A DNA stretch of 64,000 bases, from positions 13,421 through 77,420 of the forward strand of contig JABMNZ010000026.1 of NCBI GenBank assembly GCA_013204395.1, read 5' to 3'. The translations under genes were made by a program, and so were the position numbers. The notes beneath the pieces were generated by a model. That model saw nothing but the letters and a program-made list of their open reading frames with translations, searched no databases and was not told where the DNA came from. Of this stretch, positions 4,448 to 19,241 are shown one piece after another. The DNA comes from Parcubacteria group bacterium (GTDB taxonomy: Bacteria > Patescibacteriota > Patescibacteriia > UBA9934 > GWF2-40-263). Position 1 is the first letter of the stretch. Each line of letters opens with the position of its first letter.

Positions 4448-4590
4448 TATTCTCTTGTAAATAAGAATCACTATCAATCACCGCTTAATAGCGGTGATTT
4501 CTTTTTACAAACAATGGTTCTTTCGCGACAAAACATTCTTCTGGGATGTTCTGTGGCGTAAGAAACGCCTGATTATCCTAGGAGGTGTGC

Positions 4591-5574
4591 ATGCAAGCAC
4601 TCGGCACGGTTGCCCAACTCATCAATCCCGAGTTCGTGGCCACAGAAGGTCTGTATGAGTTTCGGGAAGCTACGGCAGAAGACATTCCAGCGATTCGAGA
4701 GTTGCTGTTTGATTGGTACGGCCCCTCGTACCCTTACCCGGTCAGTGCCCTCGATCCCAAGGGGTACTACCCGGCGGCGATCGATCGGAGTACGGGCATG
4801 CTTGTCGGTTTTGCCAAAGCGGTTCCGTACAAGGGGTTTCCTTCTGTGTACGAGTTCGGTGGGCTGATCGTTGCCAAGTCTCACCGGGAGAAGAAGATCG
4901 CCAAGCATCTTACGCGGATGCGTGTCGATTGGGTTCTGTCGCTGGGTGGAGCCGCTGTGGTAAGCGAGCCCGTGTGCTATCTGAGTGGTTGTCCGAGCCA
5001 GGAGAATCTCATCAAGGCAGGTTTTCACCTGGTGGCTCTGCAGGTTGGGAAGTATCCCGACATCATGCACGACACACTTGGCTTGCAGCCCGAGAGTGTA
5101 CTCATGGCCGTTCGCTGGCTTCGTGGCAATTCCCGGCTGGGACATCGCAAGGTGTTCTTGCCTAGTTACTACCGCGGTGTGTTGCACACGTTCTTGCCCC
5201 GTTACCTGCACCAGCGGCCGTGGGACGAAACGTTTGAAGATGTGCCGATGCCCCCCGCCGTTCTCCACAAGGGGTTCACCACAGCAGGTGGAACAGGGGC
5301 AGAGTTCGCTGATGTTCCTGTGAATTGGCCCGAAGCTGAGGGGATCATTCACAGTCTTCGTCTGCAGGGATTCAGGATGTGCGGCATCCTTCCAGGCTTC
5401 GGCCGCCTGTCAGACGATCGACCTTACGACTACCTGCGCATGTACCGGTTGCCAGCAAGCTTCATCATCGGGTCAGAGTCTTTCGACTTTGACAAGGTGA
5501 ATGTTGTGCCGCAGCTGGCCGCACTCAAGCACTTTGCGAGCATGGAACTCCATGGGGACATTCCCATCGAGTAG
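4591..5574 (+). CDS. GNAT-family N-acetyltransferase with C-terminal extension (paralogue 1)
   Basis: AGGAGG SD; FREATAEDIPAI, EFGGLIVAKSHREKKIAKHL (motif A variant). Confidence 0.75.
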   Translation: MQALGTVAQLINPEFVATEGLYEFREATAEDIPAIRELLFDWYGPSYPYPVSALDPKGYYPAAIDRSTGMLVGFAKAVPYKGFPSVYEFGGLIVAKSHREKKIAKHLTRMRVDWVLSLGGAAVVSEPVCYLSGCPSQENLIKAGFHLVALQVGKYPDIMHDTLGLQPESVLMAVRWLRGNSRLGHRKVFLPSYYRGVLHTFLPRYLHQRPWDETFEDVPMPPAVLHKGFTTAGGTGAEFADVPVNWPEAEGIIHSLRLQGFRMCGILPGFGRLSDDRPYDYLRMYRLPASFIIGSESFDFDKVNVVPQLAALKHFASMELHGDIPIE

Positions 5575-5604
5575 AAACACAGACACACAGAAGACTTGGA
5601 GGGC

Positions 5605-6540
5605 ATGATGCAAGCAGAAATTGATCCAGAAGATCGTTCGAAGACCAGTGATGAACTTTATCTTCGTCCAGGGAGATCTGAAGATATTTCGGCGCTCGAG
5701 CAAATCTACCGTGAAATTTACGGAGAGATGTATCCCTACTTGCCGACCTTGGAGACCGTTTGTCCAAGCAAGGGTCACTTTCTCGTCGCTTTGATTGGGA
5801 AGGAAATCGTAGGCTGCGCTGCGGCCTACGAACAGACAAATCCTTTCCTCGTGGAGTGGGGGAGGCTCGTTGTCAGTGAGCGATTTCGTGGCAGGGGGAT
5901 CGCGAAGAAGTTTGGTCACGTACGTCGCCGCTTGCTCGCACAGGGCTCCATGAACATGGCACATTCTGAGTGCGTGTGTTACGGGAAGGCAAGCCAGCGG
6001 CTGTTGAGTGGTGTTGGCTTCACACACTGGGGCATCGAACCCCTCAAGCACCCAGGGCTCAAGCCAGATGTTTTGGGCACGCAGCCTGAGACAGTGGCAA
6101 TGAGTTTGCTCTGGGACGATGGGAAATTCGGTGGGCTGGGTACACGCTCCGTCTTCGTGCCAGAGGATTGGGTTGATGGCCTGCAACTCTTGGCTCCCAC
6201 AGATATTTTTGAACAAGCACGGCAGGTACGTGCAGGTTTCTGTGTTTCCTCATCGCAAGCACAGTACTATCACCCGCGCACCGATACGTCGACAGGAATC
6301 GAAGGTTCAACTCTGGTTGATGTCGATGTGAATCATGTCAGTGCCCTGAGTGTGATCGCTCAGCTGCGCGCGGAAGATTTCCGTCTGTGCGCGTTCATGC
6401 CTGGGGTGGTTGACCGTGAAGGTGGTATCGCCTCTGATCGTGTTCGGCTCTATCGATCTTCACCCGGTACTTACATCGACTGGAGCCTTATCCAGCTCGA
6501 ACCACAAGTCCACTCCTTCTGTGAGTGGATGCGTGCGTAA
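5605..6540 (+). CDS. GNAT-family N-acetyltransferase with C-terminal extension (paralogue 2)
   Basis: GGAGG SD; EWGRLVVSERFRGRGIA acetyl-CoA motif; shares LGxQPE motif with upstream gene. Confidence 0.8.
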   Translation: MMQAEIDPEDRSKTSDELYLRPGRSEDISALEQIYREIYGEMYPYLPTLETVCPSKGHFLVALIGKEIVGCAAAYEQTNPFLVEWGRLVVSERFRGRGIAKKFGHVRRRLLAQGSMNMAHSECVCYGKASQRLLSGVGFTHWGIEPLKHPGLKPDVLGTQPETVAMSLLWDDGKFGGLGTRSVFVPEDWVDGLQLLAPTDIFEQARQVRAGFCVSSSQAQYYHPRTDTSTGIEGSTLVDVDVNHVSALSVIAQLRAEDFRLCAFMPGVVDREGGIASDRVRLYRSSPGTYIDWSLIQLEPQVHSFCEWMRA

Positions 6541-6660: not shown

Positions 6661-6908
6661 GCCTTACGGTTCGGATGGGTGTGTCCGAAAAACAAATTGT
6701 AACAACTGGCCTGGGAATGCGGAGCTTCGGCACGGCAAAAGGGCCACACGGTTCTCAACTATCACAGCGTGGACGACATGGCGGATTAGACAAACTGCCA
6801 TCATCGCCACTAGTGATAGAGACAAAACCTGAAAGACTGGACTGGGTACTAGTCAGAACCGAACTGTGAACCAAAACTACAACAGGACCACCCATTCACC
6901 CGTTAGGC
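6661..6908 (+). ncRNA. ~250-nt structured RNA, 6S RNA-like candidate
   Basis: 5' GCCTTACGG..GGATGGGTGTGTCC pairs with 3' GGACCACCCATTC..CCGTTAGGC; A-rich bubble; inner helices; TTGCGT..TGaTAAAGT promoter immediately upstream. Confidence 0.55.
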
Positions 6909-7018
6909 GCCAAAAAAATATAACCACCCCCCGCGGCGCGGGGGGTGGTTTGACGTTTAGGGGGTTTTCTTCTATTCTCTGCCCTTGCTCTTCTCAATTG
7001 AACACGAAAGGAAGTGTT

Positions 7019-8599
7019 ATGGAAACAAAGTTGTTCCGAGCCATTCACCTGCTGGCTGTGATCAGTGTGGCTCAATATGCGGTCGTACGTGCTTACACGT
7101 GGGGGTACCTCGGTAGCACCCCGGAGATGTTGGATTTCATGATGTGGCTATGTATTGCATACATAGGCGTATTTGAGCCACTAGCCGGTGTATTGGATAG
7201 ACGTCATGAACGGATCCTGAACTCCTTGGAATACCAAGTTGGCCACTTTGCGGCGCGGATCCAGTTCAAGACGGCTGACATGGAAGACTGTTTCGTGGCC
7301 ATGATCACTCGCCAGGCAACCAAGCACGGAATCCATTCCAGTGGTGGGTGGGCCGCAACGATTGCAGAAATCGTTTCTCGTCACATCTCCCGATGGGGGC
7401 AAGTTGATGACATGGGAGGACTACATCTCCATACGCAGTTGGAGAGAAGTGGCATCCAATTTGACTTGGATGAGATAGATCGATTCGACACCACCCTCTT
7501 CCAGATAGTGGAACGTCACGCGTCCCCATTACCTTTGGGTGTGGATCCGCTGGGTCACCAATATCTACTTGCTCGCGCCTACCTAGCAGGTGCTCTCAAA
7601 GGACTTGCTGGGTTGACCAAAGAGCTCGGTGGAGACGAGTCGATTACTCGAAACGTGCGGCCTGAGGATTTCGCCCTAGCGATTGATCTCTACTGCATGG
7701 ATCCCAGAGTGACTGACATGACGATGCTGTGGACGATGGAAGGTGATGGGGAAGTCCCGGTTGGTGCCTATGACCTCTTCTGGGTCCTGGCACATTGTCT
7801 TTACATCGGCATCGATCCTAAGTCTCTCAGACGCTACCTCGGTTACCACGGCAGTTACAGCTTCCTGGCTTTGGAAGAGCTGCTTCTGCTCAAGGCCATG
7901 AACACGCGCGTCCTTCAAGAGCTCACGGACAGGCCGAACTCCTTGGACGGGGTCCCATACGAGGAGATCAACGCCCTCGTTTGCCGATGGGAAAGTTGTG
8001 GATATCCAGAGAGCTTGGCGGTGTTCCGACAGTTCCCGGACGATGCAGCGTACTACGCCCACGTCCAAGCGCAGGAGCACGGGCGGGAACAGTTGGCTCG
8101 TCAAGAAGTTGAGCGTCGGGCACAAGAGGCTCATGAACTCGCGGCTCGAAAGGCAGAAAGCGCGCCCAAGGGTCGCAAGCGTGGTCAGGGAAACGCTCCG
8201 GTTTCTGAGCCAGTGGATCTTGATCTTCAGGCTCTGTGCGATGCGCTTGTCGTTTCCACTTCGTTCGAACATCTCGATGGAACGATCGTTTCTGTGATCA
8301 TGGTGATGGGTCTGATGGCGACCGGGGATCGTCTGCCCGCTTGGCAGGATCGACCTTCCCGTACTCGCGGAAAGATCTGGGGCCAGATCCGCTCGGTGGT
8401 TTCTGGATACGATCAGCCTCGGCGGATGGTAGATGACACGGTCACTGCTCTCGTCCGAGAGAGGGTGATTGATTACACGGGTGGCAACTACCGTCTGCGC
8501 GAGCCAAACGACGCCTTGCGAACAAGGAGTCCCGACTCACACGCACTACTCATCAGTGCCAAGGGGCTCATCAGTCGAGCCAAGGCACTAGCAAGCTGA
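7019..8599 (+). CDS. Orphan protein, conserved C-terminal wHTH-like module family member 1 (two N-terminal TM segments)
   Basis: TTGACG(6950)-17-TATTCT promoter, AAAGGAAG SD; C-terminal ~120 aa aligns with members 2 and 3. Confidence 0.8.
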   Translation: METKLFRAIHLLAVISVAQYAVVRAYTWGYLGSTPEMLDFMMWLCIAYIGVFEPLAGVLDRRHERILNSLEYQVGHFAARIQFKTADMEDCFVAMITRQATKHGIHSSGGWAATIAEIVSRHISRWGQVDDMGGLHLHTQLERSGIQFDLDEIDRFDTTLFQIVERHASPLPLGVDPLGHQYLLARAYLAGALKGLAGLTKELGGDESITRNVRPEDFALAIDLYCMDPRVTDMTMLWTMEGDGEVPVGAYDLFWVLAHCLYIGIDPKSLRRYLGYHGSYSFLALEELLLLKAMNTRVLQELTDRPNSLDGVPYEEINALVCRWESCGYPESLAVFRQFPDDAAYYAHVQAQEHGREQLARQEVERRAQEAHELAARKAESAPKGRKRGQGNAPVSEPVDLDLQALCDALVVSTSFEHLDGTIVSVIMVMGLMATGDRLPAWQDRPSRTRGKIWGQIRSVVSGYDQPRRMVDDTVTALVRERVIDYTGGNYRLREPNDALRTRSPDSHALLISAKGLISRAKALAS

Positions 8600-8722: not shown

Positions 8723-10252
8723 ATGGGAAAGATGCGTGCCGTTAGGGGAAAGAAGTTCCGTCTGACCGTCCCCGGGCATGGGATGCCTGAAGAAGTGAGG
8801 TCCCTCACTCAAGGACCCGTGCTCGCAAGGTTGATGTCAACCGATTCTGCATCGGTAGTTCTGATCGATGAGCTGATCAAGTCCATGCGTTTGCTCTCAT
8901 CGGACGTCTCGTCTGTACGCGAAGCTCTGCGACGATTTGTGGAGTCTGAGCACAAGGCAGGTGAGGGTTTCGACAAGACACTCTGTCGAGTGATTGAGCA
9001 GCTATCTGAGCGCTGGACTGAGCATGGGATCAGATCCGGAATCAGGACCCTGATCTATCTGGAGAGGCACGGTTTTGCCTACGAGACACTGGGTGAACAC
9101 CTGGAGTGCTTGCGTGGTATGACGGACGTCATCATCATCGCGATCGAAGAGGGGGCACAGTTTCCCCACACCTTGGCTGGGGCTTTCCCCCTTCTTCTGC
9201 AAACGAGGGGAGAGGAGTTCCTCGTTTTGGCGATTCACATGTTCGTTCACGCACTCTCTGAGGAAGAGGGGATGGTGTGTCTGGACTACGCTCCCAGAGG
9301 ACGAAGGGTCTTGAGCATTCCTGTGGTACCCAGTGTGATGATGATGTACTGGAGAGACATGTTCGAGATCTTCAGTCCGGAGTTCGACAGAAAGAAGGCC
9401 ATTGGGCTCCCGACCACACCGTTTGACACAGGGAAACTTATCCCTGATGGGTGGAGGTGCTTCAAGCGCATTGGTGAGCTGGACCTCAATCCAGATGAAC
9501 AAAAGCGGGTCATCGATCTGGGCGCCATTCGTTTGGTTCAAGTTCTGAGGGATCGTGAGCTCAGTGTGCGGACCATGCGTTTGGCACTTTTGGCGACTGT
9601 CTCAAACACAGAACTTCAGAAGCTTCTGGACAATACTCCCGAGTACATCAGGACCGTGAAGGTCTGGGAAGCTCTGGCGTGTCTGTGCTCGCTTGGCGAA
9701 TTCCACACACTCGGAGGAACCCAGGATGCGTGGGAGACTCATGTCGCCAAGAAGGAATCTGACCGAATGCTCCGCGCAGAGCAGGTAAGGCAGAAAGCCG
9801 AGGAAGAAGCTCGTCTTCGACAAGAGCGTCAGGCTGCCAATGCTCCCAACCCACAAAAACGCGGAAGTCGCGGGTACGCTCCGGGCAAGCCTGCAGAAGT
9901 GGACTTCGAGGCCCTGTGCTCCGAGCTCGACGTCTGTACGCAGTTTCCTGGAATGGATGGTGACATCACACGCATCATCCTGGTGCACGGCTTGCTTCGC
10001 GACGGTGAGCGACTGGCTTCACTAGCAAGTCTGCCCGAGCGCAACGAGAAGAAGCTCTGGGGCCAGTGCAAGACATTCTTGGGCGGTGGCACATCACGTC
10101 GCGAGTTCAAGGGTGCTCTCGGGAAGCTCGTATCTGCTCATCTGGTTTCCTTCTCCGGAGGCAGCTACCAGCTTGGCAAACCAAACCCGCGCTTCCCTCA
10201 GGCAAACGCGGTGCTCACACAGCTCCGCGGCCTGGTGAACAAGTACAGCTGA
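8723..10252 (+). CDS. Orphan protein, conserved C-terminal wHTH-like module family member 2
   Basis: TTGACA(8655)-17-TAATCT promoter; DFEALCSELDVC...GGSYQL..NPRFP C-terminus. Confidence 0.8.
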   Translation: MGKMRAVRGKKFRLTVPGHGMPEEVRSLTQGPVLARLMSTDSASVVLIDELIKSMRLLSSDVSSVREALRRFVESEHKAGEGFDKTLCRVIEQLSERWTEHGIRSGIRTLIYLERHGFAYETLGEHLECLRGMTDVIIIAIEEGAQFPHTLAGAFPLLLQTRGEEFLVLAIHMFVHALSEEEGMVCLDYAPRGRRVLSIPVVPSVMMMYWRDMFEIFSPEFDRKKAIGLPTTPFDTGKLIPDGWRCFKRIGELDLNPDEQKRVIDLGAIRLVQVLRDRELSVRTMRLALLATVSNTELQKLLDNTPEYIRTVKVWEALACLCSLGEFHTLGGTQDAWETHVAKKESDRMLRAEQVRQKAEEEARLRQERQAANAPNPQKRGSRGYAPGKPAEVDFEALCSELDVCTQFPGMDGDITRIILVHGLLRDGERLASLASLPERNEKKLWGQCKTFLGGGTSRREFKGALGKLVSAHLVSFSGGSYQLGKPNPRFPQANAVLTQLRGLVNKYS

Positions 10253-10300
10253 CCGAGTTTCGCTCGGTCCGAGGTCCAAACGCTGGACCTCTTTTTTATT
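10247..10300 (+). terminator. Double-hairpin terminator, repeat copy 2
   Basis: GACCGAG..CTCGGTC then GAGGTCCA..TGGACCTC plus T6. Confidence 0.85.
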
Positions 10301-10317: not shown

Positions 10318-10354
10318 CGCTTTACTTGACTAAAGTATTGTAAGCTGTTATCTT
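10318..10354 (+). promoter_or_regulatory. Promoter with overlapping HisR/YerC-type palindromic operator
   Basis: CGCTTTAC-TTGA-CTAAAGTA (10318-10337) overlaps -35 TTGACT; 17 bp; TGtTATCTT -10; ATG 6 nt later. Confidence 0.7.
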
Positions 10355-10360
10355 GTGGGC

Positions 10361-10654
10361 ATGCGTATTGAAGATAAAAATACAGAGAGTCTTTTTCTCG
10401 CCATATTAAGTTTGCAAACCCTTGAAGAATCAAAGGCATTCTTTAGAGATTTACTCACGGAAAAAGAGATTGAGGAGTTCTCCAATCGTTGGAAAGCGGC
10501 TCGTATGCTTTCTGAGGGCATTCCCTATTCAAAGATTCAAACGGAAACAGGATTATCTTCACGGACGGTGGCTCGTATTTCCAAATGGCTCCAGTCTGGT
10601 AAGGATGGATATAAACTTATGATTAACCGAACACATCATCATGACGACTCCTAG
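10361..10654 (+). CDS. TrpR-like YerC/YecD (HisR-type) repressor ending in HHHDDS
   Basis: LFLAILSL..EE..FFRDLLT..EI....RW..A.ML..G..Y..I...TG.S..TV.R....L..G..GY pattern. Confidence 0.9.
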   Translation: MRIEDKNTESLFLAILSLQTLEESKAFFRDLLTEKEIEEFSNRWKAARMLSEGIPYSKIQTETGLSSRTVARISKWLQSGKDGYKLMINRTHHHDDS

Positions 10655-10710
10655 GAGATGCGTCATTTGAATTGTTCAAAAACACGCGTCTCCGGCGCGT
10701 GTTTTTTATT
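10634..10710 (+). promoter_or_regulatory. Putative His-codon-controlled transcription attenuator
   Basis: CAT CAT CAT codons; mutually exclusive helices 1:2, 2:3 (GGAGATGCGT/ACGCGTCTCC) and 3:4 terminator with U-tract. Confidence 0.7.
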
Positions 10711-10724
10711 AGAAATGAAAAAAT

Positions 10725-11870
10725 ATGAATGTTCGTGAACTAACAAAAAAACTCATCTCTCTTCAAAGTTTTGATGATGGAAGACTTTATGAAAAACCAA
10801 TGTCTGATTTTTTGGTCGCCTATGTAGAAAAGAATCTTCCATGGTTGAGTATTGATCTTCAGGAAGTGGAACCGAATCGTTTCAATGTCTATTTACGAGA
10901 TAGTTCTCCAACAAAACTTCTGGTTGTTGATCAGATTGATACGGTTGTGCCAGAGCAGGGTTGGGACGGGGAGGCACTGCTGCCTGTTGAAAGTGATGGA
11001 AGAATTTACGGTCTTGGATCAAGTGATTCAAAGGGGAACGTTGCTGCGTTTTTAAAAGCACTTGAGCGTTTCGGTGAAACAAAAGGTCTTGCCATCTTGC
11101 TTTACGTTGACGAGGAATATTGTTTCAAAGGCATGAAGTATTTTATTTCATCTTCGCTTGCTAAGAATATACAACCAGAGTTCGTCTTGTCGATCGATGG
11201 CAACGGTTCGGTTTTGGGAAGCGGTTGCCGCGGGTTGGTTGAGTTTGATATTCAGATTCGTTCTGAGTCGGGACACACGGCAAACCCAAAAACACCTGGG
11301 GCGCTTTTGCCTTACTTGACCGTTTTTCAAAAATTTCAAACATGGCTAAAGCAATACTCTGATTTGGAGCAAGGGGAGGCTACAGCACAGATTGCGAATT
11401 TACGAAGTGGTTTGATTGTTAACGAATCAGATGAAGGTTTCGTGTTCGGAAAAGAGGGTAACCGCCTTCCGAATTTCACAGAGGCGAAGATTGAAATTAG
11501 AACGACACCGACTCTCTCATGGAAAGAGATTGAAAGCTTCTGGAAGTCTGAGTTGGGTCGCTACGCTGATCTTGACGCAAGCCTAACAGGAATATTCGAT
11601 CTTGATGGATTCTCTACACCTCGTGAGAGATTGAAGCTTTTGGAGCAATCCGTTTTCGATTCCATTGGAAGTGTTTCTTACTTAGATCCATCGACTTTCG
11701 GTTACCTGGATGTGGCGATGTTGAAGACGGTTTTTCCAGATGCAAGTTTGTGTTCTTTTGGAATTGGCGAGCCGGGGGTCAATCATAAGCCAAACGAGTA
11801 TGTTCGTATCGATAGATTAGACGAGGGAGTATCTGTGTACTTGCAGATACTCAAGAAACTTCTCACCTAG
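10725..11870 (+). CDS. M20 family metallopeptidase/deacylase (ArgE/DapE-like)
   Basis: QIDTV, IYGLGSSDSKG, VDEE, SGH, HKPNEYV motifs. Confidence 0.85.
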   Translation: MNVRELTKKLISLQSFDDGRLYEKPMSDFLVAYVEKNLPWLSIDLQEVEPNRFNVYLRDSSPTKLLVVDQIDTVVPEQGWDGEALLPVESDGRIYGLGSSDSKGNVAAFLKALERFGETKGLAILLYVDEEYCFKGMKYFISSSLAKNIQPEFVLSIDGNGSVLGSGCRGLVEFDIQIRSESGHTANPKTPGALLPYLTVFQKFQTWLKQYSDLEQGEATAQIANLRSGLIVNESDEGFVFGKEGNRLPNFTEAKIEIRTTPTLSWKEIESFWKSELGRYADLDASLTGIFDLDGFSTPRERLKLLEQSVFDSIGSVSYLDPSTFGYLDVAMLKTVFPDASLCSFGIGEPGVNHKPNEYVRIDRLDEGVSVYLQILKKLLT

Positions 11871-11879
11871 GAGACAGAC

Positions 11880-12728
11880 ATGGAATCCGTTCTTTTGACT
11901 CAGGGCAGTTGGAAGCGTCAGCGAGAGATCGTCGACGCTCTGGTGCTCGCATACGCAACACAGTTCTGGTGCGGGACCTGGAGAGAGCTGCTCGCGATTC
12001 GTGACGCCGACGGTTGCATCGAACAACAGTTCGGCACCTTCGATCAATACGGCAGCATCTACCCGGAGACACAACAGCTTCTGGAGCTCGCTGGTATTGG
12101 AGAGGATGATCCAAATTGGCCCAACAGGCTTTGGGCCCTGGCCGAATCTGGAGAGCTGAGGACGGTGGATGGCCGACTGGTCACGCCGTACTGGTCGCTG
12201 GATAGTGCAAGGCAGGAACTCCTCAGGTTCGTTACGTCAACGGATTCGGATGGGTACGGAGGCGAACTGCTGGTTCTCGTTGAGAGATCACAGATCGTGG
12301 GCTTCACGGCATACACATGCCTTCGTGACGCGGACGGACGTCAGGTCGCGGACAAGCGATTTCCTGTGGAGCGTCTGCACATTCCGATCGACAGTCCAGA
12401 GGCTACACAAATGTGTCTGGGGGAGTACCTGAAGAGTCAGTACGGTGAGTCACTGACCCTTGGGATCTTTCTCGATCACGCCGTCTCAGAAGTGTATCGC
12501 GGACAACGTCTGGGAAGCCGTCTGTTCGACGAGCGAATCACCCGACTGTTGGAGTTGGGTGCTGAGGTGATTCTCGGAAGAACCATCCTGACGTCCCCCA
12601 GGCAGTACCGTGGCAACTACCTCGCCCGAGGTCTTCGGCCATTTGCCGCTGACGGCACTGACGCCTTCAGCCTGTCCAAGCACTACTTCTGCACAGAAGT
12701 TTCCGAGCTCACTCCCCGAGCGAGCTGA
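11880..12728 (+). CDS. GNAT-family N-acetyltransferase
   Basis: AVSEVYRGQRLGSRLF motif A; AGGAG SD; terminator CCCAAGCC..GGCTTGGG-T7 follows. Confidence 0.75.
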   Translation: MESVLLTQGSWKRQREIVDALVLAYATQFWCGTWRELLAIRDADGCIEQQFGTFDQYGSIYPETQQLLELAGIGEDDPNWPNRLWALAESGELRTVDGRLVTPYWSLDSARQELLRFVTSTDSDGYGGELLVLVERSQIVGFTAYTCLRDADGRQVADKRFPVERLHIPIDSPEATQMCLGEYLKSQYGESLTLGIFLDHAVSEVYRGQRLGSRLFDERITRLLELGAEVILGRTILTSPRQYRGNYLARGLRPFAADGTDAFSLSKHYFCTEVSELTPRAS

Positions 12729-12779
12729 TTACGCACCCAAGCCACCTGGCTTGGGTTTTTTTGTTATACTAGTGTCTAT

Positions 12780-13370: not shown

Positions 13371-15401
13371 CTAGGTGGCCTCGAGTTCGGCGATCATGGC
13401 GTCCACTTCGTCGACGAAGACCTGAGGGTCGCCGTCGCTGGGCCAGCGCCACTTGTCGTGGGCGCCGAGCCCCAGGGATGCCACCAGCACGGAGTCCGGG
13501 CTGGCGTTCCTCTTGAACTGCGCGAAGTCAAACTTGATGTACCAGTCGCGCATCCACTTGAGAAGGAACGCTCGGTCGTAGATGACGTCGTCGTCCTTCT
13601 CCTTGCGACCAAAGGCTGTCTCAGCCAGGAAGGCCATGCGTCTGGGCTCGGCGCCCGTTCGCATCATATCGTGCATGTAGAAGTCCGTGACGGGGTAGGG
13701 CCCCATCTTGTCTTCAGAGGACTGGATCTCTTCTCCCTCTGCCACCTGCACCAGTTCTGGTGAGATGCGTCGGTTGACGATCCTCATGAGAACCTCTTTG
13801 AGAGGCTCTTCATGGGTCATGTACTCGATGTAGTACTGGACCAGGTACTGGACCAAGGTCTTGGGGATGTTGGCGATGACGTGGAAGTGCGACGACTGGT
13901 CGCCGCCTTCCGTGCACCACCCCTTGGCCGCTTCGCTCATGTCCCCGGTTCCCAGGTTGAATCCCAGGGTCTTGAGGACGAAGGTTCGGGCGCGGGCTTG
14001 GGCATTCTCGCACTGCGTGCACTTCCAGCACGGGTCGTGGCCAGCGGCCTTGAGTGCTGCTGTGGCCAACTCGGTGATGTCAGCCGTGTGAATTCCCGTA
14101 CCTAGTGCTCGGGCCAGGGTGAGCGAGTCGTCCTGTGACTCATCACCTGAGGCAGGGCCTGGAAGCCGGACGCTGGTGAAGAACTGTCGAGACCACCCAA
14201 GGCGGTCGTAGCTGTACACCGTCACCAGGTCAGCAAGACAAGAGTCGAGTCCTCCAGAGAGTCCCATAAATGTCTTGACGGGTTCTCCGTCTTTGCTGAG
14301 GTGCCACAGGCGACCGATGACTCCTTGACCGAGCCCGTTGAAGAGCTCTCTACCCACCTTCTCCATGGCCGTCGGGTCACTGGGGACAAACGGCAGGCGC
14401 TTGAGCTCACGGCGGAAGTCCTTGGTGTCAGGGAACCAGCTGCGCACTTCCGTGGTCACGAAGCGGTAGGGGAAGCGAGCGACACGTTGCGCCTGCCTCC
14501 AGCCATCGTCAGCGTTTCGGTCGTGCATCAGCTTGCCAATGTCGATGTCGCTCACCAACAGCTCGCTTTGGCCAGGCAACATCCAGCGCTTGCTGGACGC
14601 CAGGATGCGACCATCCTCGATGATCATCGAATGTCCATCCCACACCACCGACGAGGTGGAATCACCTGCCTGGATAGCGTAGATGTACACGCTCTTTTGA
14701 CGACCTGAGTTCGCCGGGAACAGCACTTCTCGCCACGTATCCTTGCCCAGCACCCAGTTGGATGCGGACAGATTCACAATGACGGTGGCACCGTTGTGAG
14801 CGTGGCGATCTGCTGGACTTGGCGTTTGCCATCCATCCTCGCAGATCTCGATCCCCATGGTGAACACGTCTTCATATCGTCTGTCGACAAACGGGATCAG
14901 AATGTCCGTCCCAATGGGAACAGGTGTGTCCTGCCACTCGAGCTTGACCTCGGTGGCTTGCAGGTCACACGCGGCGGAGAACCACTCGTTCTCCTGCCAC
15001 TCGCTGCGTCCAGCCAGGTAGCTCTTGGGAATGAACGCGATGACCTGTCCTTGAGAGACAACCGCCGCGACGTTGAACAGAGCGTCCAGTGCGAGGGGGA
15101 GTCCCAAGACAAACGTCGTTGCGATGTCAGCGGTTTTCAAGCAGAAAGTCTCAAGCGCTTCCAGGCAGGCGATCTGTAGACCGCGCTGACGGAAGGCATT
15201 GCGGCAGCCGTAGCCAGAGAGGCCCAGCTCAGGAAAAGCCATGAGCTGGATCTTCTCGGCGTCAGCCCGCAAGGCCATTTCCAGATGGCGCTTGAGGTTG
15301 ATGGCAACGCCCTTGGGCTTTGTCCAGAACGTGGCTGTTGCTACACGAGCAAAGCCGAAGCTGCTTGAACGACCGCGAGCGGTCTGTACTCGTTGGGTCA
15401 T
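13371..15401 (-). CDS. nadE: Glutamine-dependent NAD+ synthetase
   Basis: Nitrilase triad motifs FPEL/PKSYL/ICED; GLSGGLDS; ENAQARAR; TGDMSE; ISPEL; QFKR. Confidence 0.93.
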   Translation of the reverse strand: MTQRVQTARGRSSSFGFARVATATFWTKPKGVAINLKRHLEMALRADAEKIQLMAFPELGLSGYGCRNAFRQRGLQIACLEALETFCLKTADIATTFVLGLPLALDALFNVAAVVSQGQVIAFIPKSYLAGRSEWQENEWFSAACDLQATEVKLEWQDTPVPIGTDILIPFVDRRYEDVFTMGIEICEDGWQTPSPADRHAHNGATVIVNLSASNWVLGKDTWREVLFPANSGRQKSVYIYAIQAGDSTSSVVWDGHSMIIEDGRILASSKRWMLPGQSELLVSDIDIGKLMHDRNADDGWRQAQRVARFPYRFVTTEVRSWFPDTKDFRRELKRLPFVPSDPTAMEKVGRELFNGLGQGVIGRLWHLSKDGEPVKTFMGLSGGLDSCLADLVTVYSYDRLGWSRQFFTSVRLPGPASGDESQDDSLTLARALGTGIHTADITELATAALKAAGHDPCWKCTQCENAQARARTFVLKTLGFNLGTGDMSEAAKGWCTEGGDQSSHFHVIANIPKTLVQYLVQYYIEYMTHEEPLKEVLMRIVNRRISPELVQVAEGEEIQSSEDKMGPYPVTDFYMHDMMRTGAEPRRMAFLAETAFGRKEKDDDVIYDRAFLLKWMRDWYIKFDFAQFKRNASPDSVLVASLGLGAHDKWRWPSDGDPQVFVDEVDAMIAELEAT

Positions 15402-15504
15402 GGCGTCTCCTTAGGTCCAGTTAAACGTGAGGGCATGATCAGAGATTTGATCGAGCTCTCGCGTAAAAGCTCGTGCGTACCACGAGCGGGTGGGGACCTG
15501 AGGG

Positions 15505-16155
15505 TCAGGTCATTTCGTAGGACTTGTTGGAGTTGCGATCTCCGGCCGACGCGGCCTGCGGACGCTTTGCTTCGGCCAGCTGCTGCTTCAAGCGTTCGGC
15601 TCGCAGCCACTGGGCGAAGGCGAAGGTGCGCACGCCGTCGTGGATGGTGGTTGGATCGCAGAACACGCTGATGGGCATCCACAGACGGCTGATGTCCTCA
15701 CCTTCATTGGGATTGCCAAGGCCGGTGTCAGGGCCAGTCACCTTTGCTGTGTCGATCCTTGCCACGCTCAGGAAGGCGCGCTCGGTGAGGATGCCAGCGG
15801 ACAGGCTCATGGAGCGCCCACCATTGAGGACGACGACTGCGTCTTCCGTCATGGCCGCACCAGCTTCTTCCGAAGCTTCCTTTACCGCCAAAGCCTTGGG
15901 GCCGAGGTCGACATCAAAGCGCCCGGCGACCGTTTCGATTTCGACACCCGTGGGGTTGTCATCGCGCATTTGCGTCAGGTGCATCTGTGAGATGAGGAGA
16001 ACGCGGTCTCCTTCCAGATCAATCAGCAGGCAGCTGACAGAGTCGGTCACGCGGACCACTTCTCGAGTGTTTCCGCCGCTGTCCAACCAGGATTCCACTT
16101 GGCAGAAGCCGTCGTGGAAGGTGGCCTCATGTGAGGGGGCTGAGGGTTCTGACAT
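15505..16155 (-). CDS. Nudix hydrolase, ADP-ribose pyrophosphatase-like
   Basis: IETVAGRFD..AVKEASEEAG Nudix box, SAGILTE, GNPNEGEDI; GGAGG SD before ATG 16155. Confidence 0.8.
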   Translation of the reverse strand: MSEPSAPSHEATFHDGFCQVESWLDSGGNTREVVRVTDSVSCLLIDLEGDRVLLISQMHLTQMRDDNPTGVEIETVAGRFDVDLGPKALAVKEASEEAGAAMTEDAVVVLNGGRSMSLSAGILTERAFLSVARIDTAKVTGPDTGLGNPNEGEDISRLWMPISVFCDPTTIHDGVRTFAFAQWLRAERLKQQLAEAKRPQAASAGDRNSNKSYEMT

Positions 16156-16261
16156 GGTCACCTCCTTAGATACTCTATCTGCTAAGCCGCCGAGCATCGG
16201 CAACTTGGTAAATAGGGCGAGGGTACTTGGTGGGTACCAAGGCCTCGCCGCGTTGTTGGAC

Positions 16262-17563
16262 TCAGACCCTCTGGGCGTGGAAGTAGTCCACATCGTAGTC
16301 GAACACCCGCTTGAGGCGTTCGATGAATTCCGGGTCACCGATCGCCTTGGCGATGTTGTCGGTGAGCTTGCCGGTGGGGTACCAGATGCCATCAGTTCCG
16401 GTTTTGGCGAACCAGGGCTTGATCACCACCGAGCAGGTCGGAAGACCCAGGTCGTTGGTGAGGTTGGTGCCCCAGCCAAAGGAGGTCTTGACCTGGTTCA
16501 GGAACTTGCTGGCCAGCTCGCACATCAATTTGAGGTCCAGGCCGTCGGAGAAGATGACCATCTTGGATCGAGGGTCGATCCCGAGTGCCTTGTAGAAGGC
16601 GATCATCTTGAAGCAGTAGTCCTTGGGGTCTCCCGAGTCCTGACGGGTACCCTTCCAGTTGCGCGCCATCTCCTGCGTGAAGTCACGGAGGAAGGCGTCG
16701 GTGCCGAAGGTGTCGGTCAGTGCGATGGAGAGACCTTCACCGAAGGAATTCCACCACAGATCGAGCAGCTGACGCTGGACGCCAGCCAGGGCGGCATCAG
16801 GATCCTCAGCGGCCATACACAGTGCGGCCATGACCATGACGAGCTGGTGGGCGTTGGTGCCCATGGGAAGCAGAGAGAAGTTCATAGCTGCCTCCACGTT
16901 GGAGGTGCCAAGGAACTGCTCGGGGAGCTCTTCGGCCATTCGCTGATCGATGTACCGCTGCCAGGCACGGTGGAAGCGACGACGTGTACCGAAGTCGCAG
17001 AACATCAGGTACGGGTGGTACTTACGAAGGAATGCGATCTTCTCGTGAAGCCGGCTGACACCTTGAGCCATGGTGGCTTCTCGATCCATGCGAGACATGG
17101 CACGCAGGGCGTTGCGCGAGCGCATGCCGTTGATGAGCGACAGGGCAGGGACTTCCCAGTGCATGCCCCGACCCCAGTTCCCACCAAACGTCAGATCGAA
17201 CTGCCCATCCACAACACTCAGGTGGTAGCCCGGACGCTGTAGGTCGCGGAGATGATCTACGTACGAGGCGGAGAACATGCGTTCTCCGTACTCGTCCGTG
17301 CCCTTGATGTAGTGCAACTCCGAGCGCTGGAAGCGTTGGGCCTGGAGCTTGTCGAGCTCATCACCGAGGTCGTCGACATCGATCTCATCCGCCAGGCGAA
17401 CGTCTGCCGTCCTGTTGGTCAGGCCGTACCTGACCTCCACGTCCGGGAACTCTGTGTGGATCACACGTCCCATGGTGAAGGTGTAGAAGTCGTCGTCGAG
17501 CATTCCGCCGACCAATGGGCCGTCGAGAATCTCATCGATCAGGTTGCCAAAGGGTGCTGACAT
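16262..17563 (-). CDS. pncB: Nicotinate phosphoribosyltransferase
   Basis: LDDDFYTFTM, DFGTRRR, GTSNV, GTNAH, RQDSGDP, IFSDGLD, SFGWGTNLTND. Confidence 0.93.
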   Translation of the reverse strand: MSAPFGNLIDEILDGPLVGGMLDDDFYTFTMGRVIHTEFPDVEVRYGLTNRTADVRLADEIDVDDLGDELDKLQAQRFQRSELHYIKGTDEYGERMFSASYVDHLRDLQRPGYHLSVVDGQFDLTFGGNWGRGMHWEVPALSLINGMRSRNALRAMSRMDREATMAQGVSRLHEKIAFLRKYHPYLMFCDFGTRRRFHRAWQRYIDQRMAEELPEQFLGTSNVEAAMNFSLLPMGTNAHQLVMVMAALCMAAEDPDAALAGVQRQLLDLWWNSFGEGLSIALTDTFGTDAFLRDFTQEMARNWKGTRQDSGDPKDYCFKMIAFYKALGIDPRSKMVIFSDGLDLKLMCELASKFLNQVKTSFGWGTNLTNDLGLPTCSVVIKPWFAKTGTDGIWYPTGKLTDNIAKAIGDPEFIERLKRVFDYDVDYFHAQRV

Positions 17564-17615
17564 GTCTGTCCTCCAAGTAGGTGCAGGTCCTCACGACGTT
17601 TATCGTCGTGGGGAG

Positions 17616-17650
17616 AAATCTGGTCTCGAGTTGCTCGAGCTCAGGTTTCT
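17616..17650. repeat. Intergenic hairpin repeat, copy A
   Basis: AAATCTGGTCTCGAGTTGCTCGAGCTCAGGTTT; near-identical to 19209-19241. Confidence 0.75.
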
Positions 17651-17707
17651 TTTTTTAAATAGGTCGCGCCGCCCAGGAGAGAAGCTCCAGGACGGGCGAC
17701 AGAGGGA

Positions 17708-19156
17708 TCACGTGGGGAAGTAGAGTCCACGGATCTTGGCAGCGAGGTTGGTCTCTGGGAAGAACCCGAGGGTCGCCGCGTGGGTGCGCGAGAGGCGCAT
17801 GGAGACGCGGATCACGTCCTCCATGCGGACACGACCGTTGAGCAGGAGCTGCATCGGTCGCTTGCGGGTCGTCTCGATGTCGACGGTGACTTCGTCCTCT
17901 GCGCTCAAGCGGGCGAAGTTCCATCGTTGACCGCGGTAGGTGGTTCCTGCGCCTACGAGGATCATCTCTGGGGTACCGGCCGTCAGGGGCATGCCACCGT
18001 GAGAGCGAGCCCATCCTGTGGAACCCGCTGCTGTGGCGAGCATGAGGCCGTCGCCGGAGAGGCGATCGAAGACGAGGTTTCCGTTGAGGTACACCCGCAT
18101 GGCTCCGCTCTGTACGGATGTGCCATTGCTGACGGCGCGGATGAAAGCCTCGTTGAAGGCGAGCTCCTTGATCTGCCGACCATTGGAGTCTATAGCCGAG
18201 ACTTCCAGCAGCGGTTGCTGGTACAGGTGCACCACTCCGCGTTTCAGACGCGCTTCCAGCTCCGTAATGGTTCCGCCGTTGAGAAGGAAACCTACGGTGC
18301 CAGCGTTGAGTCCGATGGACGGGCGAGGGTCACCAGGGTTTTCTTGGACACAGTCCAGAAAGTATCCATCCCCACCGATGACGATCTTGTGGGTGAGGAG
18401 ACGATCGCTCAGGCCGTTCACTCGGTCCATCATGAGGCCAAGGGCTGTTTCCCGATCGCTGCGTTCAGGATCTGTGCTGCAAGCCACCATGACTTGCGCT
18501 CGGCCCTTCAGCGTGGCGCGGACCGGACCCAGGGCGACGCGGCTGGTGTACAGGCCGTACATGCACATGTAGGCCGCGACGCCCGGAGAGACGAGGTGCT
18601 CGAACTCTTCGTATAGGGCCGCGTTCTCGCGAATCGCCCTGCTGGAAGCTCCACGTGAGAGCCAGTTGTCGAGGAGCTCAGAGTTCGGTGGAAGATCCGC
18701 TTTGTCGAAGTGGACACCTGCTCGTGGAATCACGAGGAACTTGGCGTGGGCCCAGAGCCTCTGACCTTGGTGCCAGTTCTTCTGGATCTCACTTTCCTGG
18801 TCAGCGCCACCAACGATGAGATCACCACCGACCACCAGCCAGACATCATGCCCCTGACTCGTGAGTCGATCGAGTACACAAGCGGACCGTTCGTACTCGT
18901 CACGCTCAAGATCGCTGAGATCCAGGGTGATGCGCGAGTCGCGAGCCTCAAAGGCGATGCGGCACAGGTTGGCGCGATGCAAAGGACTGACGTCCTGTGT
19001 GCTTTCCTTGTCCGGTCGACCTCCACAAGGGATGATCAACAGACGGTCAGCTGAAGTCATGTGGTCCAGAATGATGTCCGCGATGCTCTCGTGATGACGT
19101 CCCGGGGGGTTGAAACTCCCTCCCAAGAAGAATGTACGTCCTTCGGGTTTCTTCAT
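17708..19156 (-). CDS. Fused nicotinate-nucleotide adenylyltransferase (NadD-like) and NAD kinase (NadK)
   Basis: N-term GGSFNPP..H, VVGGD, SSRAIR; C-term IGGDG, NAGTVGFL, AFNE, GDGLMLATAAGSTG; GGAGG SD before ATG 19156. Confidence 0.88.
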   Translation of the reverse strand: MKKPEGRTFFLGGSFNPPGRHHESIADIILDHMTSADRLLIIPCGGRPDKESTQDVSPLHRANLCRIAFEARDSRITLDLSDLERDEYERSACVLDRLTSQGHDVWLVVGGDLIVGGADQESEIQKNWHQGQRLWAHAKFLVIPRAGVHFDKADLPPNSELLDNWLSRGASSRAIRENAALYEEFEHLVSPGVAAYMCMYGLYTSRVALGPVRATLKGRAQVMVACSTDPERSDRETALGLMMDRVNGLSDRLLTHKIVIGGDGYFLDCVQENPGDPRPSIGLNAGTVGFLLNGGTITELEARLKRGVVHLYQQPLLEVSAIDSNGRQIKELAFNEAFIRAVSNGTSVQSGAMRVYLNGNLVFDRLSGDGLMLATAAGSTGWARSHGGMPLTAGTPEMILVGAGTTYRGQRWNFARLSAEDEVTVDIETTRKRPMQLLLNGRVRMEDVIRVSMRLSRTHAATLGFFPETNLAAKIRGLYFPT

Positions 19157-19208
19157 GATCTCCTCCAAGGGAATGAGTGAGTCTCCATGAACGATTGCTC
19201 CTGGAGTA

Positions 19209-19241
19209 AAATCTGGTCTCAAGCGATTTGAGCTCAGGTTT
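19209..19241. repeat. Intergenic hairpin repeat, copy B
   Basis: AAATCTGGTCTCAAGCGATTTGAGCTCAGGTTT; stem changes are compensatory. Confidence 0.75.

Follow-up and report, generated by a model that had tools for sequence, protein, structure and literature searches.

A HisR-family repressor gene whose 3' end is predicted to serve as the leader peptide of a histidine attenuator in Patescibacteria

Introduction

Can the gene of a DNA-binding repressor also be the leader peptide of an attenuator? The question is raised by hisR in a 64,000-nucleotide stretch of DNA from a Parcubacteria group bacterium (the window; G000:C25:13421-77420), which belongs to a genome (G000) of 1.10 Mb and 97.7% completeness; G and L numbers are our working labels for the genomes and loci compared. 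This gene, of the YerC/YecD type in the TrpR family, ends in a run of His codons overlapped and followed by alternative RNA helices, behind which lie the genes of an M20 hydrolase and a GNAT-fold protein. The closest named relative of its product, 91% identical, comes from a Candidatus Uhrbacteria metagenome-assembled genome. On the evidence of sequence comparison and folding models, we consider it likely that hisR acts twice: its product is a predicted His-dependent autorepressor, and its 3' end would supply the leader peptide for a ribosome-mediated His transcription attenuator ahead of the M20 and GNAT genes, as an earlier note on this DNA had proposed. The same comparisons and models indicate that the fusion of hisR with the attenuator is real and conserved, and very probably functional.

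Predicted RNA switch at the hisR locus

The 3' end of hisR (10631-10654) consists of the codons ACA CAT CAT CAT GAC GAC TCC TAG (Thr-His-His-His-Asp-Asp-Ser-stop), agreeing base by base with the tail and the His codons (10634-10642) described in the earlier note. Three mutually exclusive helices can be drawn from this point onward. Segment 1 (10641-10650) pairs with segment 2 (10655-10666) in a 1:2 helix of -8.2 kcal/mol by itself. Segment 2 (10654-10663) alternatively pairs with segment 3 (10684-10693) over 10 bp including one U-G, and this 2:3 helix encloses an inner 6-bp helix (10666-10671/10675-10680), the whole antiterminator amounting to -18.3 kcal/mol. The 3:4 helix (10681/2-10690 with 10694-10703; -13.8 kcal/mol without the U tract) is followed by a U run to 10707. 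All of these helices, together with the U tract in front of the M20 gene, lie where the earlier note had placed them. Folding of the 111-nt switch region gave a z-score of -4.78, with none of 200 shuffles equally stable. No Rfam family reached its gathering score in this region, and the His leader family RF00514 was not among the 17 hits at E ≤ 10; a match to Leu_leader was rejected as the terminator read on the opposite strand.

The effect of a ribosome was modelled by masking its footprint, which extends 11-15 nt from the P site, and folding the remaining RNA at equilibrium, using three footprint sizes. With the second or third His codon in the A site, the 2:3 helix formed with a probability of 0.86-1.0 at all three sizes, and with the first His codon in the A site the antiterminator formed too for footprints of 13 or more. 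When the ribosome had reached the stop codon with its A site and the terminator stem was already transcribed, the 3:4 helix formed with a probability of 1.0; the terminator also formed with the ribosome at the last codons or with no ribosome. The proposal that a stall on the His codons frees the 2:3 helix and that a ribosome at the stop codon favours 3:4 is reproduced in the equilibrium model. Among 1731 His-His runs lying ≤15 codons from a stop in any frame of G000, 33 have a terminator behind them, and a single one of these 33 gives a modelled switch, namely the hisR locus, which indicates that the switch there is more than a chance arrangement.

Conservation of the His tail and the predicted switch

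Homologues were gathered from 155 loci, of which 138 were distinct and 135 had enough downstream DNA; by protein sequence alone they were divided into 68 with a His run ending ≤15 codons from the stop (His-tailed, the fused form), 9 long-tailed, and 58 tail-less. A terminator was scored at a strength of at least -8 kcal/mol and ≤150 nt downstream, and an antiterminator where an upstream strand paired with the terminator 5' arm better than 95 of 100 dinucleotide shuffles. Terminators were detected in 62/68 His-tailed, 4/9 long-tailed, and 18/58 tail-less homologues, and antiterminators (the segment-2 partner) in 57/68, 1/9, and 5/58, respectively. Of the five positive tail-less loci, four are accounted for: L077 and L109 by a frameshift in the His tail, L092 by a split leader, and L086 by His codons within the core (see below). 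The frameshift in L077 and L109 is of one base and represents either decay or an assembly error; it moves the His run to a frame other than that of hisR, and the RNA switch is intact. In the phylum sample (the best 70 of 197 matches; 67 distinct usable loci), terminator and antiterminator were found in 15 and 14 of 18 His-tailed, 4 and 1 of 9 long-tailed, and 14 and 3 of 40 tail-less loci. Close protein homologues considered without DNA context have the His run ≤15 codons from the end in 101 of 119 cases. Sampling beyond Patescibacteria was confined to Bdellovibrionota, viral contigs, and Listeria YerC. The repressor occurs in 20 of 121 genomes of Bdellovibrionota (the phylum of G459), none with a His tail plus terminator; two homologues there end in His-His-stop with no terminator detected. 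The viral contigs contained no relative, and Listeria YerC has no His tail.

The spacing of the elements is informative as to what is conserved. Segment 2 starts 10-20 nt past the last His codon in 59/62 loci, and the stop codon lies anywhere from 0 to 45 nt past the His run, so that segment 2 is inside the ORF (open reading frame) in 52 loci and beyond the stop in 7, including the window locus. A fixed distance from His to segment 2 combined with a wandering stop implies that the RNA geometry, not the peptide, is conserved. When terminator arms were exchanged among 30 dissimilar loci (swap test), segment 2 paired with its own terminator arm at -14.2 kcal/mol, as against -8.4 kcal/mol with foreign arms, and 0/10000 permutations fell below -10.7 kcal/mol. 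Where segment 2 is coding, synonymous codon choice favours the pairing in 12/22 cases. The His run and the 2:3 pairing, on whose conservation the earlier note had made its proposal depend, are thus both conserved with changing sequence across Patescibacteria. In the runs, His codons are CAT:CAC = 139:44, as compared with 2676:2376 genome-wide.

The homologues were also subjected to the equilibrium model, in which 49 of 62 switch, as do 24 of the 30 dissimilar loci. Averaged over the homologues, the modelled terminator probability was 0.21-0.30 while any of the last four His-run codons occupied the A site, and stood at ≥0.94 from five codons further on. As controls, for which any of 16 codons was allowed as the stall, 2/18 tail-less homologues and 17/346 gene ends of G000 switched, the latter from 756 of 762 ends examined under a loose terminator rule.

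HisR protein, predicted operator, and promoter-like site

By profile comparison, the ORF at 10361-10654 is a HisR/YerC-family (TrpR family) protein, scoring 78.7 bits against TIGR02531 (cut-off, 42.2) and 70.8 against PF01371 (cut-off, 27), in accordance with the identity first assigned to it. It matches PDB entries 3kor, 3g1c, and 3frw at E < 1e-13, with alignments reaching residue 90-92, and its core residues are unchanged over 59 homologues; from this protein conservation we infer that hisR is translated.

A CTTTA-N6-TAAAG box at 10320-10335 matches at all 10 fixed bases and encloses the -35 hexamer. The palindrome noted earlier at this place holds for this core, and its arms taken as 6 + 6 bases contain one mismatch. 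The -35 element TTGACT (10326) and the -10 element TATCTT (10349-10354) are separated by 17 nt, with a TG extension, and the ATG at 10361 follows 6 nt on, so that the -10 position given before is confirmed and a leaderless start at this ATG is predicted. Among the homologues, the box is found ≤70 nt upstream of the start in 60/65 His-tailed, 15/54 tail-less, and 0/9 long-tailed cases, mostly over the -35 or -10, and in 0/256 background windows. A -10-like hexamer (TA-N3-T) lies exactly 6 nt before the ATG in 38/65 His-tailed homologues, and a Shine-Dalgarno-like motif is present in 1/65, which together support a leaderless, autoregulated transcript. The box at 10320-10335 is the sole perfect one in the 1.1-Mb genome; a search of G000 for a wider HisR regulon turned up neither another perfect box nor a box with a single mismatch and a..t flanks. 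HisR of R. gnavus binds this box consensus in a His-dependent manner, and HisR autoregulation has been reported in 183 genomes (PMC9413887). Autorepression through the predicted operator is supported by the box and, by analogy, by this published binding of another HisR (PMC9413887).

It is conceivable that the attenuator senses His and that the protein has ceased to repress in response to His, having taken another ligand or being kept mainly as a long leader. HisR paralogues have indeed been reassigned to tyrosine/tyramine genes (PMC9413887), the identity to solved HisR structures is moderate, and the recognition helix reads S-S-R-T-V-A-R here versus S-T-A-T-I-S-R. The invariance of the core, the frequent position of the box on the -35 or -10, and the presence of his genes behind tailed and tail-less homologues alike nevertheless point to a retained His-responsive repressor, and we give the loss of this function very little credence.

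Stand-alone and split His leaders

The genome G036 (96% complete) has no PF01371 (TrpR-family) gene, and its orthologues of the M20 (58%) and GNAT (56%) proteins are adjacent behind a stand-alone leader. This leader (L190:1367-1426; leader-attenuator region, L190:1367-1490) has 19 codons with His-His, and gives the same modelled switch. Conversely, in the same-genus genome G001 a near-identical hisR with its attenuator precedes the genes of an AstE/AspA-family hydrolase and of a GNAT unlike that of the window. Thirteen tail-less loci had a candidate for a separate His ORF, and from these L067, L083, and L152 were dropped (TTG starts, one inside hisS); of the remaining 10 loci with hisR plus a separate His leader, 5 switch in the model, 1 is borderline, and 4 do not. 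The occurrence of the same cargo with another sensor, of other cargo with the same sensor, and of split forms suggests that the His run is a sensor element attachable to and detachable from hisR. Most likely, to judge from these arrangements, the fused form either arose from hisR with a separate His leader or was the source of that arrangement.

The split loci are L092, L093, L094, L096, L115, L135, L141, L150, L012, L104, and L186. The start codon of the leader shares an ATGA with the stop of hisR in L135 and L186, a form that is likely intermediate between split and fused; the L135 leader precedes an M20 gene whose product is 29% identical to that of the window. In L185, a short ORF rich in Thr/Ile codons directly follows hisR and is itself followed by hairpins, like a thr leader.

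A second HisR subfamily of Patescibacteria has its His codons inside the core, mostly as A-H-W-x-H-H-G, and a His tail in 0/118 proteins. In this in-core class (L086, L110, L116, L124, L153, L159, L182, L183), the coding 3' end and the untranslated region form a long hairpin of -25 to -38 kcal/mol that runs into the terminator 5' arm, with a synonymous-shuffle p ≤ 0.02 in 6/10 cases versus 1/42 tail-less controls. The cargo comprises hisG, hisS, hisI, racemase-like, and phosphorylase genes. A modelled switch at the first His was obtained for L159 and L182, partly for L086, and not for L110, L124, L153, and L183. This class is possibly a second, independent design of a repressor used as a leader.

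Layout of the unit and cargo genes

The features of the unit are given in Table 1. The M20 protein matches PF01546, as its earlier identification requires; all NCBIfam matches fall below cut-off (TIGR01910, 76.2 vs 217.6), so that it can be called ArgE/DapE-like only weakly. Its first metal-ligand His is replaced by Gln, as in the 58% identical orthologue in L190, leaving the five-ligand set of a dinuclear site incomplete; by this comparison the Gln is a subfamily trait, perhaps indicating a mononuclear or altered site. The second protein has no Pfam or NCBIfam match, and its assignment as GNAT, likewise made earlier, is carried by GNAT-family neighbours at 0.96-0.97 in ESM Atlas features.

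Table 1. Features of the hisR unit (positions in the window)
Feature	Position	Strand	Remarks
Intrinsic terminator of the upstream gene, isolating the hisR unit	10271..10298	+	Stem 10271-10291 plus T run
Predicted HisR operator over the -35	10318..10337	.	CTTTA-N6-TAAAG core 10320-10335
Sigma-70-type promoter-like site	10326..10354	+	-35 10326-10331, extended -10 10349-10354
hisR (YerC/YecD, TrpR family), 97 aa; 3' end, inferred leader peptide	10361..10654	+	TIGR02531, PF01371
Three CAT His codons (control codons)	10634..10642	+	
Segment 1, protector strand, coding	10641..10650	+	
Segment 2, partner of 1 or 3; begins ~12 nt past the last His codon	10654..10666	+	
Inner helix of antiterminator / spacer	10666..10680	+	
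Segment 3, partner of 2 or 4	10681..10693	+	
Segment 4 and U tract, intrinsic terminator 3:4	10694..10707	+	
M20 (ArgE/DapE-like) hydrolase, 381 aa	10725..11870	+	PF01546
GNAT-fold protein, 282 aa	11880..12728	+	ESM Atlas features and structure
Operon-closing intrinsic terminator, 6 nt past the stop	12735..12763	+	

Of the ORFs downstream of hisR at the homologue loci, 102 of the 126 in first position and 41 of the 43 in second position were compared with Pfam. In 8/68 fused loci (L023, L024, L026, L030, L043, L101, L133, L136), hisG or hisI stands first or second after the attenuator, and a His-racemase-like gene, far below cut-off, follows the fused unit in 2/68 (L033, L105). Other cargo of fused units includes SLOG proteins, a nucleoside phosphorylase, an alanine racemase, and unknowns. 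G000 has a single tRNA-His(GUG) gene.

Upstream of the unit, the window contains two large ORFs (6866-8599 and 8723-10252) with similar C-termini and no Pfam or NCBIfam match, themselves preceded by two GNAT-domain genes (4585-5574 and 5596-6540). Downstream, 13371-19222 is presumably a NAD salvage cluster, judged by eye from the ORF list; we take its genes to encode a Gln-dependent NAD synthetase-like protein, a NUDIX-like protein, a nicotinate phosphoribosyltransferase-like protein, and a NadD/NAD-kinase-like fusion.

Conflicting observations and alternative explanations

A number of observations weigh against the double role of hisR in His sensing, beginning with kinship. On a quick tree of 86 columns, 61/68 fused copies fall on one 71-row branch (Shimodaira-Hasegawa-like approximate likelihood ratio test, SH-aLRT, 92), so that their counts are not independent events and reflect descent in part; the changing helix sequences are better evidence than such counts. 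The tree needs 15 changes, and the starred branches force 3. In the swap test, a segment's own arm ranked top in only 9/30 rows and among the best five in 28, GA-rich strands being common to many of the helices.

The tail itself admits another reading. Nine Peribacteria-type homologues, the long-tailed class, have HRHH at the same place followed by 31-68 more codons, mostly without a matching switch, and a terminator was not detected in 5 of them. This family (f21: L106, L117, L121, L126, L128, L130, L134, L145, L148) has HRHH six codons past the last GY motif, lacks the HisR box upstream in all nine, and often has ribD downstream. The fixed HRHH suggests that the His tail might be a protein feature serving metal or ligand binding, with the hairpin simply terminating a monocistronic hisR constitutively and the 2:3 pairing incidental. 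The structure model of the window protein has six helices, with a predicted local distance difference test score (pLDDT) of 96-98 over residues 11-90, and the tail extends its last helix; the His run (residues 92-94), however, lies within the low-confidence end, where pLDDT is 60 over residues 91-97. A general protein function is further opposed by the absence of a tail in 58/135 homologues and in the Listeria protein, and by the fixed His-to-segment-2 spacing with segment 2 kept as nucleotides past early stop codons. Nor was a promoter-like site found in the 17 nt between the terminator and M20. We regard this explanation as highly improbable.

Further difficulties concern the coupling of transcription and translation. 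A profile search of G000 found NusG and no Rho above cut-off, and 53 of 140 strict terminators in this genome, including the operon-closing one, lie ≤12 nt from a stop codon. In B. subtilis, a short distance from stop to terminator reportedly marks a polymerase running ahead of ribosomes. By analogy, the lack of Rho and the short gaps suggest loose coupling, with uncoupled transcription possible in Patescibacteria, and under loose coupling a 97-codon leader would need a polymerase pause. The pause motif TTNTTT is modestly enriched among the homologues (24/62 versus 14.0 expected) and absent from the window. As for the models, which are equilibrium and not kinetic, 13/62 homologues fail to switch, including the closest relative L003, and only 31/62 terminate without a ribosome, so that the default state is not uniform.

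The cargo also fits imperfectly. hisG and hisD were not found in the G000 genome, most cargo genes are without an evident His role, and his genes also stand behind tail-less hisR genes. The suggestion of the earlier note that M20 and GNAT scavenge His is a guess, the best family matches being far below cut-off and the first metal-ligand His of M20 being Gln.

Alternatively, the attenuator might read general ribosome progress along hisR or the Asp supply at the two GAC codons, or act post-transcriptionally on mRNA stability with an uncoupled polymerase. The Asp-Asp run at the locus gives a modelled switch too; the missing Rho, the short stop-to-stem distances, the half of the homologues that antiterminate without a ribosome in the model, and the diverse, often non-His cargo would likewise be in keeping with such alternatives. 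Across homologues, however, HH occurs in 73/135 tails, followed by KK in 26, with DD in 5, which speaks against Asp, and the modelled terminator minimum falls on the His run itself, with termination restored five codons later. Stand-alone His leaders of the same geometry and the his genes among the cargo likewise argue for His as the signal, and we judge these alternatives improbable.

Proposed mechanism

The double role of hisR in His sensing, which we prefer, starts from elements present in the window (the box and promoter-like site, the ORF, and the helices with their terminator) and from those recovered by comparison (the His run, the segment-2 distance, and the 2:3 and 3:4 pairing, all conserved amid changes of sequence, stop position, and cargo). 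When His is plentiful, His-bound HisR would damp initiation, and the few transcripts made would end after hisR: in the model, a ribosome 2-4 codons past the His run covers segment 2, and 3:4 terminates at ~10707. The repressor would still be made with the cargo off. When His is short, both brakes would lift. A modelled ribosome whose A site holds a His codon sits on segment 1, and 2:3 is free to form, so that RNA polymerase would enter M20 and GNAT only when charged tRNA-His is scarce. The stall would also delay the release of new repressor, the His run being 3 codons from its end. Placement of the ribosome would need an RNA polymerase pause near 10670-10680, which is the weakest step of the scheme.

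Discussion

The enterobacterial hisL/trpL attenuators have the same run of control codons, the same 1:2/2:3/3:4 helices, and read-through upon a stall. In contrast to the classical His leaders (hisL, RF00514), the leader here is a 97-codon repressor gene rather than a short dedicated peptide; there is no RF00514 match, the His codons number only 2-4, and the cargo is variable and, in the window, not biosynthetic. In SecM and MifM, the gene of a full-length protein governs the gene after it by way of a stalled ribosome, but through nascent-chain arrest rather than tRNA charging and at the level of translation, and the full-length protein does not regulate by binding DNA. A TrpR-family repressor is combined with attenuation in E. 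coli trp (PMC7755916). The nearest precedent for control codons within a repressor gene is YtgCR of Chlamydia trachomatis, whose synthesis is likewise amino-acid-dependent through tandem codons (WWW) in the repressor coding sequence (PMC7755916). There, however, the stall leads to termination and loss of the trans-acting repressor, a polarity opposite to that of the hisR switch; the WWW codons belong to the permease portion, and the passages describing it mention no 1:2/2:3/3:4 switch (PMC7755916). Chlamydial trpR-IGR-trpBA, with a putative separate trpL, resembles the split form of hisR plus His leader (PMC7755916). Mycobacterial leaderless polycysteine ORFs are also first ORFs in which an amino-acid run, read by the ribosome, senses for the operonic genes, but they are short, have no protein function, and mask a downstream ribosome-binding site (10.1101/834739).

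HisR (YerC) regulons have been described in Firmicutes, Actinobacteria, Synergistetes, and Proteobacteria (Ashniev et al. 2022, PMC9413887), with the same protein family, a cacTTTA-N6-TAAAgtg-type box, autoregulation, and hisR first in the unit. His attenuators were predicted in that survey in the B. cereus group, Peptostreptococcaceae, and Erysipelotrichales; in its accessible passages they are confined to lineages without HisR, and Patescibacteria lie outside its coverage, its supplements as far as available having no 'Candidatus' or 'Parcubacteria' entry (PMC9413887). The open-access literature searched yielded no description of an attenuator leader that is itself a repressor gene, and within that literature the earlier note's statement of knowing no such case still stands. 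The mechanisms are those of textbooks; the fused repressor-leader layout is new relative to the literature searched.

In the usual teaching, an attenuator leader is a short, disposable peptide, and searches for such leaders target small intergenic ORFs. A leader lying in the last codons of a gene annotated as a regulator would escape such searches, and the survey of HisR regulons, which by its accessible passages sought His leaders only where HisR is absent, would miss the fused form (PMC9413887). A wider view, for and against which we find the balance even, is that Patescibacteria, nearly all amino-acid auxotrophs, possess a portable one-gene His sensor in which the ORF of a transcription factor is the attenuator leader. 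It would have been built twice, as the C-terminal tail and as the in-core H-W-x-H-H with a long hairpin overlapping the terminator before hisG, hisS, or hisI, and reused before unrelated cargo as a switch for host nutrition or starvation, marking dozens of uncharacterised enzymes as His-responsive.

If the double role of hisR is true, one 350-nt unit would provide two-level control, reading free His via the repressor and charged tRNA-His via the ribosome, and would solve the problem of continued repressor synthesis while downstream genes are silenced. It would also tie orphan enzymes (M20/GNAT, AstE/GNAT, racemase-like, SLOG) to histidine, and offer a handle on regulation and transcription-translation coupling in Patescibacteria.

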